The position numbers and the translations under genes are program-made. A DNA stretch of 64,000 nt from a virus (taxonomy: Duplodnaviria > Heunggongvirae > Uroviricota > Caudoviricetes). Below, piece by piece: positions 21,877 to 51,060 of this stretch. Every line of letters begins with the position of its first letter. Position 1 is the stretch's first letter. The notes beneath the pieces were generated by a model. That model worked only from the letters and a program-made list of their open reading frames with translations. It made no database searches and had not been told where the DNA came from. The stretch lies in IMG/VR virus record IMGVR_UViG_3300016484_000447, positions 23,773 to 87,772 of that record, one strand, 5' to 3'.

Positions 21877-24129
21877 TTACAGCGAACAGCTATCGCAGGC
21901 AGCAGCTTCCTGCTCTTGCGCCTTTTCCTCGACAATGCCAGTCGCGGAGTTGATGTAGTAGCGGGTCTTCATGCCCAGCTTGACGCGGAGAAGCCACTGT
22001 TCAACCAGTTCCTTCGCCGACACCTTCCGCTCCCCGTTGCCGTACTTGATGTACAGGTCAGCCGAGATAGCCTGTCCGGTGAAGCACTGCACCAGGGCGT
22101 ACACGAGGATCATGTCCTCGGTGGGGACATCCCACGCCATCTCGTACTTGTCCTTCAGTTCATCGTAGTCCGGGCAGATGAACAGGTTCTTGTTCACACC
22201 GGATGTCTTGATGACCTTGAACTCCCGGATGGGGTACAGACCGTTCGTGTGCCCGCCAGCCACAGAGGAAGACTCGCACGGCATGTGGGCTTCGAGAACG
22301 CTGAAACGAAGCCCGCCCAGCGCCATCATCCGCTTCCGAACGCCCTCCCAGTCCCGCTTCAGCTTGTAGCCGATCTTGTCCAGGGCTAGCCGATTCGCCG
22401 TGTCGATGGGAAGCCAGCCTTCCGCGTACTTCGTACTGCTCGCCCAGTCACACGCCCCACGCTCTTCTGCCAGACGCACAGCAGCTTTGTGCAAGCTGTA
22501 GCTGTGAAGTTCCGCCAGTTCTGCGATGTACAGCTTGCCCTCGGTCGAACTGTACTTCAGCCCGCGCTTCGCCATCGCATGAGCGAGGTTGGTGATCCCG
22601 ACGCCGATGGATCGACGCGCCCGTGCTGTGACTTCGAGGTGAGGGAACGGGTACTCCATCAGGTCGATCACGTTGTCGATCATCAGGGCGGCGTAGTACG
22701 CCACGTCCTCGTATTCCTCTTCGGACACTAGACCAGCAGCGATTGCCGCCAGAGAACAGAGCCCGATTTCACCGTCACGCTCGTAGGCCGACTTGTAAGA
22801 GTACAGTGCAGCCACGGACGAGAAGCCCTTCACCGGCAGGCCGATTTCTTGGCACAAGTTGGACAGGTAGATCGTGTCCTTGAACGGGGTGTGGCGGTTC
22901 ATCTCGAACGTGTTGTGTTCGTAGATTCGACCGTTCTCCACGGCTTCCGTCAGGAACGCGATTGCTAGTTCCCGGGCTTGCACCACAGTCTTCGGGATCA
23001 GCGGGTTGGCCTCAACCTTCGAGTATTCCGACAGGAACACTTGAGGGTCAGGATTGTACATCGCTTCGTGAAGCGCCGGGGCGTCCCCGTAGCTCACCAG
23101 CATCCAGGGCTCGTTCCGGGCCACGCGACGGGCAAACTCGGTGTTGTACCCCACGCTGTAGTCGATGTCCTTGATCCGCTTCTCAGGCAGCGTCTGCACG
23201 TTCTTCAGCTTGACCAGATCGAAGAACTCCGGGTCCAGCACGGTGAAGTGCATCGTCAGAGCCCCGCCGCGTCCAGCTTGCAGGTTTGCACCCACAGCCG
23301 CCTGCTGCACCTTGTAGTAGGGCAGCTTGCCCATGTGCTTGATCGCCCCGCGCCGCACCTTGTCACCCTTGCTACGGGTCTTCAGGTGAGAGCCGATGCC
23401 AGCCGATGCACAGGTCATCATGTAGGCAATGTGGTCAGACGCTGCCAGAGACGCCGCCGAGTCGTGGGTTGTCGATGTGCAGCACGATGCGTACTGCCGT
23501 TTCATGGTCCCCAGGTTCAGCGAGAACGGCGACGGCGGGTTGATCTTCTTCAGGCTGAAGTACGTGTACAGGCTCTTCACGTCGTTCATGCGCCGGTAGA
23601 GAGGCATCTTCGCCATGTTGCCCAGTGCCATACGCATGTACACGAACTGCGGCGTCTCGTAGCTCTTTCCGCCCACTCGGTCCACGATGGCGTACTTGTC
23701 CATCGTCTGCTTCGTCTCGGTCAGCGGAGCGTTGATGTCGCGGCTGTGGTCGATGAAGGTCTGGCAGAAGTCGAGTTCCTCGTCAGAGTAGCCCATTTCC
23801 TCCCAGTGACCTTGCGCAACCATCATGCGGTACATCTCCCGGACGGTAGGGATCGTCTCCCAGCTTCCGAAGATTTCCTTGTACAGCTTGCCCATGTACA
23901 GACGCCCAGCCATCTTTTGATGCGCCGTCGTCTCCATGTCCACGCAAGCCGCGATCATTGCCTTGTGCAGATCGTCAGTGGTCACGCCATCGTCACACTT
24001 CTTGGTCGCGGCCAGAACGACGGTAGACCAGTCCACGCCGATACCGCAGGCCCACTCAGCCCACTTGTTCAGCTTGTCAGGGTCGAACCACGCCGGTTGC
24101 CCGTTTCGCTTGATGACGGTACGAATCAT
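21877..24129 (-). CDS. nrdA: ribonucleotide reductase class Ia alpha subunit (with ATP-cone)
   Basis: 750 aa. N-terminal ATP cone (VIKRNG...FD..KL), catalytic-cysteine regions and C-terminal CxxC tail typical of NrdA. Confidence 0.9.
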   Translation of the reverse strand: MIRTVIKRNGQPAWFDPDKLNKWAEWACGIGVDWSTVVLAATKKCDDGVTTDDLHKAMIAACVDMETTAHQKMAGRLYMGKLYKEIFGSWETIPTVREMYRMMVAQGHWEEMGYSDEELDFCQTFIDHSRDINAPLTETKQTMDKYAIVDRVGGKSYETPQFVYMRMALGNMAKMPLYRRMNDVKSLYTYFSLKKINPPSPFSLNLGTMKRQYASCCTSTTHDSAASLAASDHIAYMMTCASAGIGSHLKTRSKGDKVRRGAIKHMGKLPYYKVQQAAVGANLQAGRGGALTMHFTVLDPEFFDLVKLKNVQTLPEKRIKDIDYSVGYNTEFARRVARNEPWMLVSYGDAPALHEAMYNPDPQVFLSEYSKVEANPLIPKTVVQARELAIAFLTEAVENGRIYEHNTFEMNRHTPFKDTIYLSNLCQEIGLPVKGFSSVAALYSYKSAYERDGEIGLCSLAAIAAGLVSEEEYEDVAYYAALMIDNVIDLMEYPFPHLEVTARARRSIGVGITNLAHAMAKRGLKYSSTEGKLYIAELAELHSYSLHKAAVRLAEERGACDWASSTKYAEGWLPIDTANRLALDKIGYKLKRDWEGVRKRMMALGGLRFSVLEAHMPCESSSVAGGHTNGLYPIREFKVIKTSGVNKNLFICPDYDELKDKYEMAWDVPTEDMILVYALVQCFTGQAISADLYIKYGNGERKVSAKELVEQWLLRVKLGMKTRYYINSATGIVEEKAQEQEAAACDSCSL

Positions 24130-31488: not shown

Positions 31489-31931
31489 CTTGTCAGTAGG
31501 TACTCCTGCATGTTTGAAAGTATTTCAACAGAGTCTTCAACCCTCCCGAGCGTTAAGTTGCATCTTGCGCAAAGCAGCCCGCGTACTCTTCCCGTAGCAT
31601 GGCAGTGATCTATGTGGAGCGACTGCCCAGCCGGGCCATAGCCGTTAGGCTCTTGCTTGCAAATCTCGCATACGCCGTTAGCTCTCTCTAACATCTCTTG
31701 AAGCTCTTCAGGGCGCAGGCCAAGCTTGCGCGCCCTCGTAGCCCGTTGGCTTTGTTTTCTAGCCCTACGGAACTCTGGGTCGTCTGTGTACCGCTTGCGG
31801 CGGGAGGCTTCTTGTCGTGCATTTGTGCATCGCTTGCAGACCCGAGTCCTCCCGCCAGCACACTTTGAGTGCTTCGGGAAGTCCTCCAACGATTTAGACT
31901 CCCCGCAAGAGTTACACAGTCGAGTCAGCAT
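31485..31931 (-). CDS. recombination endonuclease VII (Holliday junction resolvase)
   Basis: N-terminal CxxC..C..C zinc finger plus CEIC...HIDHCH..G.VRGLLCARCN, the Endonuclease_7 signature. Confidence 0.75.
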   Translation of the reverse strand: MLTRLCNSCGESKSLEDFPKHSKCAGGRTRVCKRCTNARQEASRRKRYTDDPEFRRARKQSQRATRARKLGLRPEELQEMLERANGVCEICKQEPNGYGPAGQSLHIDHCHATGRVRGLLCARCNLTLGRVEDSVEILSNMQEYLLTR

Positions 31932-33513
31932 CTTCCTTCTGCACCACGATGTCCTGCACGCGGTTGCGGATCACGTCGAACGGCTCGTCAACCAGCAGCT
32001 TGCCGTCCTTGAAGATGACGCGCAGTTCGCCGCCAGCTTCTTCGTCCGGGGTCACGCTGTCGGACATGACGAACTTGCCGTCCACCAGATCGACACGCAT
32101 CAGGCCACGGGCCGACTTCTTGATGCCGCTGTCGGTCTTCGGGTCTTTGTACAGTTCGACCAGCTTGCCGTCCACCACAGCAGCCGTGGCCTTGACAGCC
32201 AGGGAGAGGGTGTCGCGGGTGACGTACTGGTAGGTGAACGAACCGACGCCGAAGACCACGTTGTTCGACGCAAAGTTGCGCTGTTGCAGGCGAGAGAAGA
32301 TTTCCTCTGCACGGTCCAGGGTGATCGAGTCACCGTAGATCAGGCCGATGGACGGGCTCAGTTCACGGTAGCCGAACTTGTTCACCGTGCCACCGAACTT
32401 CTCCCACAGCACCTCGATGGAGCCCTTGACTTCCTCTTCGGTCAGCGGGCTGACTTCGCCGGGAAGGTGGGGAGCCATCAGCGCCGCCTTGCTGAAGACG
32501 CCCTGCGGGGTGCGGACGATTTCGTCCTCGCGGTAGCCGCAGATGATCCGCACGGGATCGCCGCTGTCGGGGCGGACGACAACCTTGCCCGGCAGGAAGC
32601 CGTTGGGGCCACGCGCCTCGATTTCACCCTTCAGCGCCGGGAGGTACTCGGTCAGCACTTGCCAGTAGTCGATGGTATCGCTCACGATGGAGACGATGCC
32701 AGTCGGGTAGGCTTCGGTGATCCAGTAGCGGATCGTTTCCAGTTCACCATCGACAGCGATGCCCAGCGAGGTGACGCTGTGTTCCGACGCCGGGACACTG
32801 GTGCCGACGAGATAGCCGGTCGGGTAGCCGCTGTAGAACTTGTCCACGAAGCCCAGGGCAGCGATGGTGTCGGTGCCAGAGGACGACAGGAGGTGCCCGT
32901 AGCCAGACGCCGCCGCAGCTTGGCGACCCATGAGGCCGCGAGCCGAGAAGTCGTGGCACTGGAACGGAATGTGGTCACGGTTGCCCACCGTCTCGTCAGC
33001 GAAGCGGCGGCACAGGGTCAGGAACTGGTAGGCGGTGGTCGCCGAGGTGGTCACGCCCCAGCACTCCTGCGACAGCACCGTCTCGATGTACGTCACCAGC
33101 CATGCGAAGTCCTTGTGGGTGTTCTTCCACGTCGCCAGAGGCACCTTGAAGGGCACCTTGGAGCCTTCCGGCAGGGCCTTGATTTCCAGTGGCAGATAGC
33201 CCAGCTTGTGCAGCTTCTCGAAGTGTTCCATCGAGACGGCGCCGACGCCCAGGTAGCCTTCGACACGGGCCTTCCACTCGCCGATCACTTCCTTGAAGGG
33301 GCGCGAGAAGAACTCGTTGTTGAACTCGGCGATGATGAAGCCCTTGATGAAGGCTTGCATCCCGGCCCAGACGACGCGGCGTTCCGCGTCTTGGAACTGG
33401 CAGCGAGCGGCGCTGCGAGCGGTGATGTTGGCGTACAGCATGGTGGTGCCGTCGCGCATGAACTTCTTGTGCGAGAGCTTGTAGCCGTCAGCTTGTTCGA
33501 GGGGCTTGGTCAT
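31912..33513 (-). CDS. nicotinamide phosphoribosyltransferase family protein (NadV/NAMPT-like; candidate Namat)
   Basis: 533 aa with NAMPT family motifs throughout (the DG..M/YG..GT.. pattern, GYRG-like phosphoribosyl-binding regions, C-terminal FGxG). Adjacent to a Prs-like gene. Confidence 0.8.
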   Translation of the reverse strand: MTKPLEQADGYKLSHKKFMRDGTTMLYANITARSAARCQFQDAERRVVWAGMQAFIKGFIIAEFNNEFFSRPFKEVIGEWKARVEGYLGVGAVSMEHFEKLHKLGYLPLEIKALPEGSKVPFKVPLATWKNTHKDFAWLVTYIETVLSQECWGVTTSATTAYQFLTLCRRFADETVGNRDHIPFQCHDFSARGLMGRQAAAASGYGHLLSSSGTDTIAALGFVDKFYSGYPTGYLVGTSVPASEHSVTSLGIAVDGELETIRYWITEAYPTGIVSIVSDTIDYWQVLTEYLPALKGEIEARGPNGFLPGKVVVRPDSGDPVRIICGYREDEIVRTPQGVFSKAALMAPHLPGEVSPLTEEEVKGSIEVLWEKFGGTVNKFGYRELSPSIGLIYGDSITLDRAEEIFSRLQQRNFASNNVVFGVGSFTYQYVTRDTLSLAVKATAAVVDGKLVELYKDPKTDSGIKKSARGLMRVDLVDGKFVMSDSVTPDEEAGGELRVIFKDGKLLVDEPFDVIRNRVQDIVVQKEDADSTV

Positions 33514-45142: not shown

Positions 45143-45943
45143 TTACTTGCCGGTTCCGACGATGCCCTTGAAGTCGAAGGGCACCAGCACGCTCTGCACC
45201 TTGCCGTTCAGCATGGCCTGGGCCATCATCTGCCGGGTCTGGGCGTCCATGTAGTCAATGGCACCCCGGTTGGAGTTCAGGATGGCGATGCGCTCGGCTT
45301 CCTTGGCGGCAGTCTGGACTTCGACTTCCTTCTTGGCCTTGTCGTTCTTGGCCTTGACGAGTTCGTTGGCGCTCTGCACCACGCTGTCGGCGGGGGTGAT
45401 CGCACGCACCTTGACGTTGGAGACGGTCAGGATGCCTTCCATGCCTTCAGCCTTCAGGGCGGCTTCGATGTCGGCCTTCACGTTGCGCTCGATGGCTTCG
45501 CGGTTGTCGTTCATGACCAGGGCCTCGTACTTGCGGGCTTCCTTGTACACGGCGTTGCGAGCCGTGGTCAGAACCCAGTTGTACATCAGGTAGATGTCGC
45601 CGTCGTGGGCCGCGTGGAACGCCTTGCTCTTCGTGCTGTACAGTTCGGCCACCGCCTGCGGGTTGATCGAGTACAAGACGTTCATGTCGAAGTCCTTCAT
45701 CGTGCTGTTGTCCAGGGCGACAGGGGTCATGTCCAGCACTTCGGCGGTCACGTCCTTGACGGGGAAGGTCAGGATGTCACCGACGAGGGTCTGGTTGAAG
45801 CTGCCGGGCAGCAGTTCGCCCTGCTGGACTTGCTTGTCGAAACCGATGCGGATGCCGACCTCGCCGGTTTCGATCCGCTTCATGCAGCCGGTGGACATGA
45901 CAGCCATCAGCATGATGGCGAAGATGGTGAAGATGCGCTTCAT
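45143..45943 (-). CDS. SPFH/band-7 (prohibitin/stomatin-like) domain lipoprotein
   Basis: Signal peptide with lipobox (LMAVMSTGC). SPFH-like core with Ala/Glu/Lys-rich C-terminal helix. Confidence 0.65.
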   Translation of the reverse strand: MKRIFTIFAIMLMAVMSTGCMKRIETGEVGIRIGFDKQVQQGELLPGSFNQTLVGDILTFPVKDVTAEVLDMTPVALDNSTMKDFDMNVLYSINPQAVAELYSTKSKAFHAAHDGDIYLMYNWVLTTARNAVYKEARKYEALVMNDNREAIERNVKADIEAALKAEGMEGILTVSNVKVRAITPADSVVQSANELVKAKNDKAKKEVEVQTAAKEAERIAILNSNRGAIDYMDAQTRQMMAQAMLNGKVQSVLVPFDFKGIVGTGK

Positions 45944-46143
45944 TGGGTTTTCTCCTTGGGTTGTGCAGCAGATGCGGGCTTTCCTGCTCGCGGAAGCTGC
46001 GTTGGGGTGTGTTGTATCGGCTTGGACTGCTCCCTGGGCTGCTGCACCTTCGGACGGAACAGCAGCAGTTGGATCGCAGGCGGGATAGCGACCGTCGCAA
46101 ACGGCGCCATCGCCAGCGCCAACATGACCAGGGCGCGTTTCAT
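45940..46143 (-). CDS. small secreted/membrane protein
   Basis: 67 aa with N-terminal signal/TM segment, Pro/Gln-rich tail. Confidence 0.35.
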   Translation of the reverse strand: MKRALVMLALAMAPFATVAIPPAIQLLLFRPKVQQPREQSKPIQHTPTQLPRAGKPASAAQPKEKTQ

Positions 46144-46331
46144 CGGCTGCGGCTCTGCATGTAGCTCAGGTTGCGGGCACGCTCGGCCTCGAACTGGACG
46201 CGGGCGTTGGCTTCCTTGCCGATGTTGACTTCCTTCTCGTGTTGGCGAGCGGCCAGCATCTTCGGGTCTTGTTCGACGCTGGCGCAGGCAGTCATGGCGA
46301 GGGCAGCGGCGATCAGGAACAGCTTCTTCAT
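46140..46331 (-). CDS. small lipoprotein
   Basis: 63 aa. Signal peptide with LAMTAC lipobox. Confidence 0.5.
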   Translation of the reverse strand: MKKLFLIAAALAMTACASVEQDPKMLAARQHEKEVNIGKEANARVQFEAERARNLSYMQSRSR

Positions 46332-46367: not shown

Positions 46368-46541
46368 TTAGAACATCAGGACAACGAAGGCAAGTGTAGC
46401 CATTGCCACGAACGCTGTCAAGCCAGAAATGAAAAGACCCTTCAGCAGAGTACGCTTTTCAGCCCAGGTCGAGTGCTTCAGGAACAGGTAGCCGACGTAG
46501 ACCAGTGCCCAGGTCAGCAGAAACGAGACGATGATCTTGCC
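46368..46541 (-). CDS. small membrane protein (2 TM)
   Basis: 57 aa from MGKIIVSFLL. The rest of the listed 199-aa ORF is Arg/Pro-rich antisense-type junk. Confidence 0.35.
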   Translation of the reverse strand, partial: GKIIVSFLLTWALVYVGYLFLKHSTWAEKRTLLKGLFISGLTAFVAMATLAFVVLMF

Positions 46542-46546
46542 CATGT

Positions 46547-47539
46547 TCAACCCCCCATGTTCTCGCCGGGGATGGTCTTGCGATTCTGCACCCAGCCGCG
46601 CAGGTTGCCACTCCACAGCTTCATCTTCCTGTCCATGTGCGAGACACCATCTTGCCAAGTGGTCGGCATCTGCGGGACGTTGTAGCCCATGTACCCGGCG
46701 TCGAACATCGGCGTGGCTTGGTGTTCGAGGGCGGAAGCGTGCTTCCGTGCGTCTCCCACCAGCCGCTCGTAGACCGACAGGCTCTTCATGAGGTTGTAGT
46801 CCACGTTGCGGAACGACACAGCCGCAGAGCGGGCGCAGGACACGATGATTGCTTCCTCTTTGGACAGGTACTGCCAACGCTCGACACCGCCTCCGCACTC
46901 GATGACGATGCTGTACGAGACAGTGCCGTCGTCCTCGTACTCCGTGGAGATGTACGGGAGGTGCCACTGGCCCGGCTCCAGGCGCATCGGCACGCTGGCG
47001 TCCTTGGCCTCACGCATGACGCGGGCCAGTTCGCGGATCGTCGGGTCTGCCGCGTCGTCGTCACGGAGCCAGAAGAAGTTGTTCCACTCCGTCCCCGACA
47101 TCACGGTCTTCATCATCTGGAACGGCTCCAGCAGACGGTTGTAGACCTGCTTGTGGTAGCCCGCGTTGTAGAACTGTTCCGCCCACGCAACGGACATATT
47201 CTTTGCCTCGTCCCACGCTTCTTCCGGGGTGAGGTCCGAGCCGTCGAAAGCGTCGATGACCGTGGCGTCGTAGTCCACACCCTTGTCCTGCATCCCCGGA
47301 TTGGCCTGACCGAAGCGGACGGGGCGTGCGGTCAGTTGTTCCAGCATCTTATGGAACGGGATGGCCCGGCTGCTGGCGCTGTTGCGGCTCTTGTCGCGGT
47401 GGGTGTTGAGTTCGGCCAGGATCAGGCGCGGGTACTCCAGTTCGTAGGTCAGCATCTCGATGTCTGCGGGTGAGATGCTGTGCGCCAGGATGGTCGCCTT
47501 GATGCCGAACTTGCCTTCGACTGTGATGAGTTTCTTCAT
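46547..47539 (-). CDS. ThyX-like flavin-dependent thymidylate synthase family protein
   Basis: HRDKSRNSASSR matches the ThyX signature (R)HRxxSxNExSxR. 330 aa, larger than canonical ThyX. Confidence 0.5.
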   Translation of the reverse strand: MKKLITVEGKFGIKATILAHSISPADIEMLTYELEYPRLILAELNTHRDKSRNSASSRAIPFHKMLEQLTARPVRFGQANPGMQDKGVDYDATVIDAFDGSDLTPEEAWDEAKNMSVAWAEQFYNAGYHKQVYNRLLEPFQMMKTVMSGTEWNNFFWLRDDDAADPTIRELARVMREAKDASVPMRLEPGQWHLPYISTEYEDDGTVSYSIVIECGGGVERWQYLSKEEAIIVSCARSAAVSFRNVDYNLMKSLSVYERLVGDARKHASALEHQATPMFDAGYMGYNVPQMPTTWQDGVSHMDRKMKLWSGNLRGWVQNRKTIPGENMGG

Positions 47540-48150: not shown

Positions 48151-48594
48151 TTACTCCTTGCAGAATGTGTGGTTTCCGATGCGCTTGCAGGCAGTACCTG
48201 GGGGCTTGACTCCGTTGAAGAAGATGTACTTCTCGTCAGTGAGAACCCTGGGGTGCATGATGGCCGCATTGTAGTAGCTCTCGCTCTCGTCTGTCAACGC
48301 CACCAGACCCTTTTTCTTGTACCACGGGAACTGTTGCTTCTGTGCAACAACCTCGCAGACTGACTTCCCCGTCTTTGCAGACCTGTGGAAGATTACGTCA
48401 AGCACTGCCCGTCTTCCCTTGTCGGGCTCTCCACGGGCTTCGTGGTAGACGGCGCTGACGAGGCACCTGTACTGGGATTCGTCGTACTCGACTCCAACAT
48501 TCGACACTGGCTTGGCAAACGACAGCAGCAAGGCAATGGCGACGATGGGGTAGGTCAGGAGCTTGATTGTTTTTCGCATGATCGGAGTGTACAT
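48151..48594 (-). CDS. SleB/CwlJ-type cell-wall hydrolase with signal peptide
   Basis: N-terminal signal/TM segment. AVYHEARGE...VIFHR...KQQFPWY matches the Hydrolase_2 (SleB) signature. Confidence 0.6.
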   Translation of the reverse strand: MYTPIMRKTIKLLTYPIVAIALLLSFAKPVSNVGVEYDESQYRCLVSAVYHEARGEPDKGRRAVLDVIFHRSAKTGKSVCEVVAQKQQFPWYKKKGLVALTDESESYYNAAIMHPRVLTDEKYIFFNGVKPPGTACKRIGNHTFCKE

Positions 48595-49343: not shown

Positions 49344-49600
49344 GGTGGGCTTGTTGATGGCTTCCTCGACGGCCTTTTGCTAGGCCTTGATCGATGGACG
49401 GGCACCGTGCATGGCAGCGGCGGAAGCAGTGCGGCGAGCGCGGGTGGTGGTAGCAGTCTTGGTCATGATGAACCCTCCTGTGAAAAGGTGAACTACTCTA
49501 GGCCACTCGGTCAGCGCCCATCGCCAACCGATGTCTATATCATCGTCACCTTCCAACCCACAGTCAAGCACTTTCTGCAATACCCGACAAAACTGTCAGG

Positions 49601-49795
49601 TCATTTCGTGCATTTCACAGGGCGACCGTCGTCACCGATGACTTGGTGCAGGGTGCCATTGGCATCCATGACCCACTCGTAGCCTGCGTGGCACTGGTGG
49701 GTGTCCAAGCTGCCGCCGAAGATGATGGCGCCGATGATGCCGACAAAGGCCAGCGCGATCAGCAGTTCGAGAGGGGTGAATCCGTTGCGCTTCAT
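49601..49795 (-). CDS. type IV pilin-like mini-protein (prepilin-type N-terminus)
   Basis: MKRNG|FTPLELLIALAFVGIIGAII carries a class-III signal (G-F...E5). Mature part ~55 aa with two Cys (C-terminal disulfide loop). The ATG overlaps the ligase stop (ATGA). Confidence 0.5.
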   Translation of the reverse strand: MKRNGFTPLELLIALAFVGIIGAIIFGGSLDTHQCHAGYEWVMDANGTLHQVIGDDGRPVKCTK

Positions 49796-50781
49796 TCGCT
49801 CATGTCCTCTTCGCTTCGGATGCCGACGAACGTCGGGAACCGGGGTTTGTCCTTCTGGCCTTTCGGGAAGAACTTGGCCTTGCCGATCTGGCCGACGAGG
49901 TTGTCTTCGGTCTTGTTCACGAAGTCCTCCCACGCCTTGACCCGTTGGTCATGCAGCATGTTGCCAGGGCCGACATCGACCAGTTGACCCTTGGCGATCA
50001 GCACCTTGCCGTTGTGGATGACATCCGCCAGGGCACGCATCTGGATCATGCCGACCATACCCTTCGGCACCATGTTCTCTTGGTGCGTGCTGCGCTCGGT
50101 GCGACCCAGTTCGTTGACCTTGGCCTCGTTCTGGTTTTCCTTGGCTTCGATCAGGTTCTCGATCACACCCTCGAAGTCGATGAACCGCTTGATGCGCAGG
50201 TACGTGCCGCCGCGCACCGTTGCCCGGCCCGACTTGTGAAGCCCTTGAGGATCGCGCACGATGACTCCTTCAAACCCGGCGTCCAGGCACTCGTCCTCGA
50301 AAGCCAGAAGTTCCTCCAGCGAATGCACCAGCTTCCAGGGCACCAGGGAGACGTTGAACAGCTTCCGCCAGTCGCCGACTTGGTGGGCAACGGTCAGAGC
50401 TTCCAGGCGCTCGATGTAGGGCAGATGAACGGTTGCCGGGCCGATGTAGTCGAAGGCCCACCACACCAGATCGTTGCTGCGGGTGGGCTTGCCCTCCTTC
50501 GCCGTCTTGCGGTTGACGAAGCCAGTCGTGTTGCTGCACAGCCGGGCATCCGTCCAGTCGCCCAAGGCCAGTTCCCCGTCCACGCCCAACAGCGCCTCGT
50601 TGCTGAAGCACTCGGCGATGAAGTTGTTCTTGAACGGCTTCAGGCTGCGGCCCGTGATGTCTCCCGCCAAGTTGAGGCCACGCACACCGTCGATCTTCGG
50701 CATGGCGACAACCGGGAACTTCACCTTGTCTTCCTCAAGGTCGCAGGCCAGATGCGGTTTCATGTCTGTCTTCTTCGTCAC
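49792..50781 (-). CDS. ATP-dependent DNA ligase (T7-like)
   Basis: KIDGVRG adenylation motif (KxDG), EGVIVR (motif IV-like), LIAKGQ. The start is placed at GTG 7 nt after the GGAG RBS. Confidence 0.75.
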   Translation of the reverse strand: MTKKTDMKPHLACDLEEDKVKFPVVAMPKIDGVRGLNLAGDITGRSLKPFKNNFIAECFSNEALLGVDGELALGDWTDARLCSNTTGFVNRKTAKEGKPTRSNDLVWWAFDYIGPATVHLPYIERLEALTVAHQVGDWRKLFNVSLVPWKLVHSLEELLAFEDECLDAGFEGVIVRDPQGLHKSGRATVRGGTYLRIKRFIDFEGVIENLIEAKENQNEAKVNELGRTERSTHQENMVPKGMVGMIQMRALADVIHNGKVLIAKGQLVDVGPGNMLHDQRVKAWEDFVNKTEDNLVGQIGKAKFFPKGQKDKPRFPTFVGIRSEEDMSE

Positions 50782-50813: not shown

Positions 50814-50842
50814 ACTGTAGCACGCACACTGACGGATGTCAA
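50814..50842 (-). promoter_or_regulatory. sigma70-type promoter for the leftward early/replication operon (TTGACA-17-TACAGT)
   Basis: On the minus strand TTGACA (50842-50837), 17-nt spacer, TACAGT (50819-50814). Then GGAG RBS and the ligase GTG. A GCCCTG-GA-CAGGGC dyad sits immediately upstream of the -35. Confidence 0.65.
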
Positions 50843-51060
50843 GCCCTGTCCAGGGCCAGTCCTCGCACACAAGACAGTCCTATACATGCTCTGGAAGAGC
50901 CTTATAACTAGAACTTATAAGACTGCCGGTAGGCAGTCATCATGTACTTAGACAATATGTTAGTGAGTGTCTACTAACGTACTATATAGATTAAAATAGC
51001 ATAGTTCTGGCTGTCGTGCAAGTAGGGTTTACCCCTATCAAAAAGTTTTAGGGATGCCGA
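50843..51060. promoter_or_regulatory. AT-rich divergent control region (possible operators / origin-like features)
   Basis: About 200 bp of ~35-40% GC in a 60-65% GC genome. Contains GACTGCC-GGTAG-GCAGTC hairpin, CTTATAA direct repeats, TTAGT..ACTAA dyad and T/A tracts. Lies between the leftward promoter and the first rightward genes. Confidence 0.4.

Follow-up and report, generated by a model that had tools for sequence, protein, structure and literature searches.

A virus-encoded mini-prepilin family with a conserved cysteine module and gene linkage to SPFH/Band_7 lipoproteins: a candidate envelope-remodelling system

The 64,000-nucleotide stretch of viral DNA analyzed here (the window; positions 23,773 to 87,772 of IMG/VR record IMGVR_UViG_3300016484_000447) carries on its minus strand a gene for a 64-residue protein, the mini-prepilin, which starts with a predicted class III prepilin-peptidase signal and ends with a small module bounded by two cysteines. 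The gene is genuine and belongs to a family that appears to be confined to viruses, where its commonest neighbor encodes an SPFH/Band_7 lipoprotein, and its product probably remodels the host cell envelope. The gene, its translation signals and the two flanking genes that recur at an orthologous locus are as follows:

49601..49795, minus strand: mini-prepilin coding sequence, 64 amino acids plus stop; translation MKRNGFTPLELLIALAFVGIIGAIIFGGSLDTHQCHAGYEWVMDANGTLHQVIGDDGRPVKCTK
49781..49795, minus strand: leader peptide MKRNG ending in Gly-1, predicted prepilin-peptidase cleavage after G5; read from the sequence
49712..49780, minus strand: pilin-like alpha1-N segment FTPLELLIALAFVGIIGAIIFGG with Phe+1, Glu+5 and Gly+14; AlphaFold2 helix and family profile match
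49610..49693, minus strand: conserved, predicted-periplasmic Cys35...Cys62 beta-module, C-x2-G-Y-x-[FW]...Q-V-I-G-x2-G-x-P-V-x-C
49805..49811, minus strand: Shine-Dalgarno sequence AAGAGGA (core GAGGA, 49805-49809), 9 nt 5' of the mini-prepilin ATG and within the 3' end of the ligase gene; read from the sequence
49792..50781, minus strand: ATP-dependent DNA ligase, 329 amino acids, Pfam DNA_ligase_A_M; its stop overlaps the mini-prepilin start
48151..48594, minus strand: Hydrolase_2 protein (SleB-type cell-wall hydrolase) with an N-terminal transmembrane (TM) or signal-anchor segment, conserved at the orthologous locus L001

The class III motif consists of the leader MKRNG followed by F-T-P-L-E, giving Phe+1 and Glu+5, and by a hydrophobic stretch. 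In a six-frame scan of the window this was the sole site with such a motif in a plausible open reading frame (ORF). The initial annotation had described this signal and its Glu+5 correctly, and had put the mature part at about 55 residues; its actual length is 59. The protein contains exactly two cysteines (residues 35 and 62 of the precursor) with 26 residues between them. The mini-prepilin ATG (49793-49795) and the ligase TGA (49792-49794) overlap as ATGA at 49792-49795. An identical protein is on record on contigs of 82-88 kb, and an ortholog (P0002) with 77% identity to the window protein is found in the same ligase-to-Hydrolase_2 synteny at locus L001, where the gene order is ligase, mini-protein with the same 4-nt ATGA overlap, a protein of unknown function and Hydrolase_2. 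P0002 has the canonical motif GFSIIE and passes Pfam N_methyl with 31.1 bits against a gathering threshold of 21.2. The ratio of nonsynonymous to synonymous substitution rates (dN/dS; Nei-Gojobori) between the window copy and P0002 is 0.30 overall, with 0.19 for the C-terminal half against 0.49 for the N-terminal half. The mini-prepilin is a genuine gene under purifying selection.

Relatives were collected by an exhaustive HMMER search of 1.84 billion cluster representatives (clusters at 50% identity) with a two-sequence profile. In total, 196 proteins were obtained at E<=1e-3, i.e., about 200 clusters, mostly of 60-95 residues and matched end to end; an earlier word-indexed homolog search had retrieved just the window protein and one ortholog. 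In an alignment of 65 sequences, which apart from the 77% ortholog are 28-52% identical to the window protein, Gly-1, Glu+5, Cys35, Gly57 and Cys62 are invariant, and Phe+1, Ile20, Gly38 and Gln51 are nearly so. The C-terminal part follows the family consensus C-x2-G-Y-x-F-x5-G-x3-Q-x5-G-x-G-V-x-C. Motif statistics were calculated for the 150 collected members bearing the Cys module. The pattern G-[FMYWLIV]-x3-E is kept by 142 of them (~95%), with Phe at +1 in 137, the modal spacing of the cysteines is 26, and the leaders have 3-8 residues and as a rule end in Gly. Of the 142 canonical members, 115 (81%) have Gly+14 and 78 (55%) have a Pro close to +22. This pattern of conservation indicates that the class III prepilin-peptidase-type signal is real and evolutionarily conserved. 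The concern attached to the initial annotation, that homologs might lack the G-F...E register and share only a generic TM helix, is not borne out, since some 95% of the homologs keep the register. A profile restricted to the C-terminal module retrieved 21 proteins of 61-73 residues, 18 of them with a precomputed N_methyl match, and no other architecture was found among these 21 proteins. The Cys module was also found on an ordinary TM or signal anchor that has no prepilin motif, in the metagenomic proteins P0044, P0262 and P0269 and in a protein of Acidovorax phage ACP17, and prepilin processing is therefore not always required.

Comparison of the family profile with sequences in the PDB showed that the N-terminal 26-31 residues match solved type IVa pilins with E values of 1e-5 to 3.5e-11. 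The pilins matched were Geobacter PilA-N, PAK pilin, Neisseria PilE, Myxococcus and Thermus PilA, PpdD and GspG. AlphaFold2, run with the family alignment, gave a mean predicted local distance difference test (pLDDT) score of 87 and a helix at residues 8-26 with pLDDT of up to 97. This helix and the profile alignment to residues 1-26 of the solved pilins identify a hydrophobic alpha1-N helix of the pilin type. Beyond the membrane, in the predicted periplasmic part, the model has about 36 residues of beta structure, including three short strands (33-36, 39-43 and 49-51) that form a small sheet; the Cys module accounts for about 30 residues. The globular alpha-beta head of pilins, in which alpha1-C packs on an antiparallel sheet of four to five strands, is absent from the mini-prepilin. 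Because the PDB matches are confined to the first 26-31 residues, the N-terminus is equated with pilin alpha1-N and the remainder with something other than a pilin head. The Cys...Cys loop had initially been likened to the pilin D-region. The cysteine pair itself is invariant and a disulfide is predicted; homology to pilin D-regions is not demonstrable. Structure comparisons gave no fold match for the C-terminal Cys module, and in a BFVD structure search with the mini-prepilin the top match was the ACP17 homolog. Against PHROGs only weak N-terminal matches were observed, to small families of unknown function and to one labelled 'pilin'.

The family appears to be virus-restricted. With two sub-family probes we found 25 + 7 = 32 loci in IMG/VR; 185,579 species-representative genomes of bacteria and archaea gave no true match. 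The one genome match obtained (L040) was rejected as a false positive inside a SpoVT/AbrB-type gene. A profile search of a set of 5.8 billion proteins separated true members, scoring 69-97 bits, from ordinary pilins, which reached about 52-55 bits over the N-terminus only; none of the true members was on a contig above 185 kb, while the ordinary pilins were on chromosomes. All eight family contexts inspected were phage-like, on contigs of 34-161 kb, with the gene lying among co-directional small genes and genes of replication and nucleotide metabolism (RNA ligase, DNA ligase, UvsX, family B DNA polymerase, DnaB, endonuclease VII, dCMP deaminase and NAMPT). The family loci have G+C contents of between 37% and 60%. 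In a survey of 50,697 deposited phage records the module was identified only in Synechococcus phage BUCT-ZZ01, with a canonical N-terminus, and in ACP17, with the generic anchor. A tblastn search of phages with the 64-residue protein gave no match, probably due to low-complexity masking. The ACP17 member (ASS33915.1; L010 372..617) adjoins RNA ligase 2 and a DNA ligase. BUCT-ZZ01 (L009; ON615601.1) is labelled Kyanoviridae, and about 12 kb from its canonical member (UTS52068.1) encodes an SPFH lipoprotein 42% identical to that of the window; its record of 156,057 bp is close in length to that of ACP17 (156,281 bp).

Linkage was analyzed at 41 loci by a Band_7 protein search of all retrieved family loci followed by clustering of plus-strand ORFs. 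The commonest neighbor of the mini-prepilin gene was that of an SPFH/Band_7 lipoprotein of ~265 residues (28 of 41 loci), followed by that of a 58-residue two-TM hairpin protein directly upstream of the SPFH gene (23 loci), while the next cluster was present at only 14 loci. The usual order is two-TM protein, SPFH lipoprotein, mini-prepilin, with little or no intergenic space and often a gap or overlap of 0-4 nt; at three loci (L045-L047) the mini-prepilin gene starts within the end of the SPFH gene, with 4 nt in common. When the loci were clustered, SPFH linkage was retained in 22 of 33 clusters at 90% identity, in 10 of 20 at 70% and in 4 of 6 at 50%. The window holds all three genes on the minus strand, where they are dispersed, with the mini-prepilin gene 3.7 kb from the SPFH gene:

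45143..45943, minus strand: SPFH/Band_7 lipoprotein, 266 amino acids, with signal peptide and lipobox ...STGC; Pfam Band_7 61.3 bits, phrog_200 'lipoprotein'
46368..46544, minus strand: 58-residue two-TM hairpin protein, a member by clustering of the SPFH-preceding cluster; called as a gene at locus L002
46140..46331, minus strand: 63-residue lipoprotein between the two-TM and SPFH genes; ORF translation, assigned to the module by position only
45940..46143, minus strand: 67-residue signal/TM protein between the two-TM and SPFH genes; ORF translation, assigned to the module by position only

The two small envelope proteins encoded at 45940..46331 gave no family matches, and PADLOC gave no match for the mini-prepilin, the SPFH lipoprotein, the two-TM protein or the small lipoproteins. 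Relatives of the SPFH lipoprotein in Vi01-like and Acinetobacter phages likewise have a small two-TM protein encoded upstream, and are not accompanied by a mini-prepilin; close to the SPFH lipoprotein gene of Vi01 is one that carries the annotation superinfection exclusion. The literature yielded no functional study of SPFH/Band_7 lipoproteins of phages. The neighborhood also bears on the ATGA junction, from which the mini-prepilin had been taken to be translationally coupled to the ligase. The overlap is there, in the window and at L001 alike, and its association with the ligase is nevertheless incidental, because in relatives the gene adjoins that of the SPFH/Band_7 lipoprotein. Within the SPFH-linked sub-family (L015-L038), an extra conserved motif, [FWI]G[IV]NG-x-TE[ST]R, directly precedes the first Cys, and a second, a C-terminal tail that is often NPN/EPGKPGSFG, extends past the last Cys.

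The reading we favor, with a confidence somewhat short of an even chance, is that the mini-prepilin acts as a decoy pilin within an envelope-modifying module. The precursor would be inserted into the host inner membrane by the signal recognition particle and Sec with its N-terminus inside and its C-terminus outside, after which a host prepilin peptidase of the PilD/GspO type would remove MKRNG and methylate Phe1. The resulting 59-residue product would retain the pilin-like alpha1-N helix with Glu5, and its ~30-residue periplasmic beta-module would be closed by a Cys35-Cys62 disulfide following oxidation by DsbA. Through PilD and the assembly platform it could then enter a type IV filament pathway (pilus, type II secretion pseudopilus or competence pilus), where it may block, cap or alter filament assembly because it lacks the normal head domain. 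The decoy would be one part of a superinfection-exclusion-type set of envelope genes that includes the SPFH/Band_7 lipoprotein and the 58-residue two-TM protein. In pilins, Glu5 is dispensable for cleavage and for simple membrane anchoring, methylation and assembly being the steps that need it, and a charge within a TM helix comes at a cost. The strict conservation of Gly-1 and Glu5 thus argues for recognition by prepilin peptidase and the filament machinery, and favors a decoy pilin. The pilus poison proposed initially is a plausible hypothesis. A broader proposal, which we put forward as rather unlikely, is that the three genes constitute an undescribed, virus-only envelope system, in which the phage would borrow the host prepilin peptidase, and possibly the filament platform, and install a head-less pseudo-subunit. 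In concert with an SPFH assembly in the periplasm, this subunit would inactivate type IV filaments, turn them to another use or seal the envelope.

A number of observations weigh against a decoy pilin. The window copy scores below the curated cut-offs both of Pfam PF07963 N_methyl (13.2 vs 21.2) and of TIGR02532 (15.6 vs 16.3). Its low score is due to a Pro at +3, an unusual residue that is unique to the window copy among the 150 Cys-module members, and most mini-prepilin relatives score above the N_methyl cut-off. No type IV pilus or type II secretion assembly genes were found in the window or in the eight inspected family contexts, and the best matches of the ligase, the polymerase and the tail fibre, only 31-57% identical, are spread over many host genera, so that no host could be inferred. 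In the SPFH-linked sub-family the helix after Glu5 diverges and is far more variable than in canonical members. The generic-anchor variants make up ~5-10% of the C-module proteins, and the effector may for this reason be the C-module rather than the pilin mimicry. Finally, the tight linkage to the SPFH lipoprotein is unexplained by a simple pilus-poison model.

Taken together, the generic-anchor variants that retain the C-module, its stronger constraint relative to the N-terminus (0.19 vs 0.49) and the SPFH linkage support another explanation, which we consider possible but doubtful. Here the Cys-Cys module would be the effector and would, with the phage SPFH lipoprotein and the two-TM protein, organize or stabilize an envelope microdomain, much as NfeD-type proteins are paired with SPFH proteins in bacteria. 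Such a microdomain could, for example, keep out the DNA of incoming phages or prevent lysis from without; the prepilin signal would then serve as just one of several possible anchors, and neither pili nor type II secretion would be the target. The neighbor counts and close gene spacing fit this account, as does the persistence of linkage at 70% and 50% identity, and the two-TM partners of the SPFH lipoproteins in Vi01 and Acinetobacter phages, with the superinfection-exclusion annotation near the Vi01 copy, point the same way. Nevertheless, retention of Gly-1 and Glu5 in ~95% of members is hard to explain for a mere anchor, the module has only ~30 residues and no NfeD or OB-fold signal, and the synteny may partly reflect shared ancestry. 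Moreover, the genes are 3.7 kb apart in the window, and ACP17 and several other loci have no SPFH gene nearby.

Less probable still is an intramembrane signal mimic, which we judge improbable. The alpha1-N helix would then imitate a full inner-membrane pool of pilin and bind kinases of the PilS or PleC type, with the effect of silencing pilin transcription or of inducing pilus retraction and changes in cyclic di-GMP, with no entry into filaments. Pilin TM segments do signal to PleC, and a 17-residue peptide reduces susceptibility to a pilus phage (PMC7196804); intramembrane contact is also the means by which PilA controls PilS (Kilmury and Burrows 2016, as cited in PMC6058289). The family N-terminus is also nearly identical to the type IVa pilin consensus. 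However, such a mimic leaves the Cys-Cys module and the SPFH linkage unexplained, and many members, the window copy among them, vary in the part of the helix that follows Glu5. The sensors concerned are also specific to particular lineages, yet the family spans loci of 37-60% G+C.

It is very improbable that the mini-prepilin is a lysis-related envelope protein, i.e., a spanin- or antiholin-like component acting with the nearby cell-wall hydrolase or lipoproteins. The TM-bearing Hydrolase_2 protein, whose gene in the window is located among replication genes, is indeed encoded two genes downstream, both in the window and at the ortholog locus, and an inner-membrane Cys protein with a lipoprotein superficially recalls an i-spanin/o-spanin pair. 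However, no holin-like neighbors were found in the window, other family loci have no hydrolase nearby, and the idea of a lysis cassette was rejected on these grounds. In addition, the ~36-residue beta part is much too small to bridge the periplasm and has no long coiled coil of the spanin type, and the gene is located in regions of the replication or early type. A chance ORF with a coincidental TM-like stretch, to which the shortness of the ORF and its sub-threshold scores might point, is effectively refuted by the ortholog (dN/dS 0.30 and the same ATGA junction), the 196 cluster representatives at E<=1e-3, the AlphaFold2 pLDDT of 87 and the Shine-Dalgarno sequence. A modest share of the probability goes to mechanisms outside the readings given here.

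By 2026 pilin mimicry by phages was known, and virulent phages had been noted to carry short PilA-like genes. Prophage-encoded FimU mimics (P-FimU) incorporate into the pilus and block phage adsorption, resulting in superinfection exclusion (PMC12952977; Sztanko et al. 2026). The P-FimU proteins of F10-like phages and the P-PilA proteins of Xylella prophages are, like the mini-prepilin, phage-encoded members of the type IV pilin family. They are full-length proteins of ~180 residues with ~30-50% identity to host FimU or PilA over the head, are expressed from prophages and are used in phage-versus-phage competition, whereas the mini-prepilin has no head domain and no similarity to them past alpha1-N, and its family was not found in bacterial genomes, its contexts being replication modules on phage contigs of 57-180 kb. 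The same study reported truncated PilA-like genes of ~60 residues in virulent Pseudomonas phages, whose function was untested there and which were proposed to enter pili or inhibit assembly (PMC12952977). These proteins resemble the mini-prepilin in size and in being encoded by early or auxiliary genes of non-temperate phages. PAK_P3 gp139 (ADX32338.1; L011 2992..3171), a protein of 59 residues with a short basic leader, GFTLTE and a hydrophobic helix that is also present in many PAK_P3/PAK_P1-like phages, may be one of them. It differs from the window protein by a hydrophilic, Cys-free tail that lacks C-x2-G-Y...G-x-G-V-x-C, and the similarity is limited to the N-terminal ~25 residues. Because the Cys module is absent, we place gp139 in a separate mini-prepilin family. 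At the lower end of size, a 17-residue pilin TM peptide alone lowers pilus function and susceptibility to PhiCbK (PMC7196804).

Geobacter PilA-N ('geopilin domain 1'), the best PDB match of the family profile (E 3.5e-11), is comparable in size with its 61-residue mature form, and indicates that the type IV pilus machinery can handle a nearly head-less pilin. The match covers the N-terminal ~30 residues only, however, and PilA-N pairs with PilA-C, has no disulfide module and is encoded in a chromosomal pilus operon. Small membrane partners of the NfeD type adjoin bacterial SPFH genes, as in YbbJ/QmcA and YuaF/FloT. Like the mini-prepilin, they are membrane-anchored proteins with a beta-rich soluble end; an SPFH gene is adjacent or near in 28 of the 41 mini-prepilin loci and 3.7 kb away in the window. 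The mini-prepilin differs in its class III signal anchor, in a module of ~30 instead of ~60-70 residues and in a gene order that is usually SPFH followed by mini-prepilin. No NfeD or OB-fold domain was detected in the mini-prepilin, which has no Pfam match other than N_methyl. Virulent phages also encode small, early membrane or periplasmic superinfection-exclusion proteins such as Imm and Sp of T4. To these we detected no sequence or fold similarity, and the likeness is one of functional class only.

No prior description of a virus-only mini-prepilin family with this distinct architecture, in a conserved three-gene envelope module, was found in the literature. Phage-versus-phage defense by pilin mimics has been shown only recently, for full-length prophage FimU alone, and the present family is different and much smaller. 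If mini-prepilins have type IV filaments as their target, nature would here provide compact inhibitors of pili, type II secretion or competence. These would be of interest for anti-virulence strategies and when phage-therapy cocktails are designed, and virulent phages would be users of pilin mimicry. If the Cys-Cys module instead works with the SPFH lipoprotein, it would be a first starting point for understanding why SPFH/Band_7 lipoproteins are carried by phages. Should the three genes form one envelope system, superinfection exclusion or host takeover would proceed by a new mechanism that is common among uncultured virulent phages. Its small size puts the three-gene module within reach of direct cloning and testing.

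The phage represented by the window has a novel siphovirus-type genome of ~85 kb with a G+C content of 59.8%, and appears virulent; its relatives are distant, the best cultured ones reaching just 31-57% identity. Its genes include those of a 1717-residue tape measure protein, ribonucleotide reductase, DNA polymerase, NAMPT, ThyX, a primase-helicase and a UvrD-like helicase; no tRNA genes were found in the phage, and DNA megablast of the region against cultured phages gave no match. A consensus scan for sigma-70-like promoters gave two sites in comparison with 0.4 expected, the better of which lies as follows:

50814..50842, minus strand: sigma-70-like promoter TTGACA-17-TACAGT, TG-extended, upstream of the ligase and mini-prepilin genes; consensus scan only

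Since this promoter is directly upstream of the ligase gene, the ligase and mini-prepilin would be the first genes of a leftward unit, which, based on the promoter and the neighboring replication genes, is probably expressed early. The second, weaker match is located at 49539-49567, downstream of the mini-prepilin gene. A divergent intergenic region (50830..51053) separates the leftward ligase unit from rightward genes. Ribonucleotide reductase (21877..24129), NAMPT (31912..33513) and ThyX (46547..47539) make up a large auxiliary nucleotide and NAD set for a siphovirus-type genome of ~85 kb.

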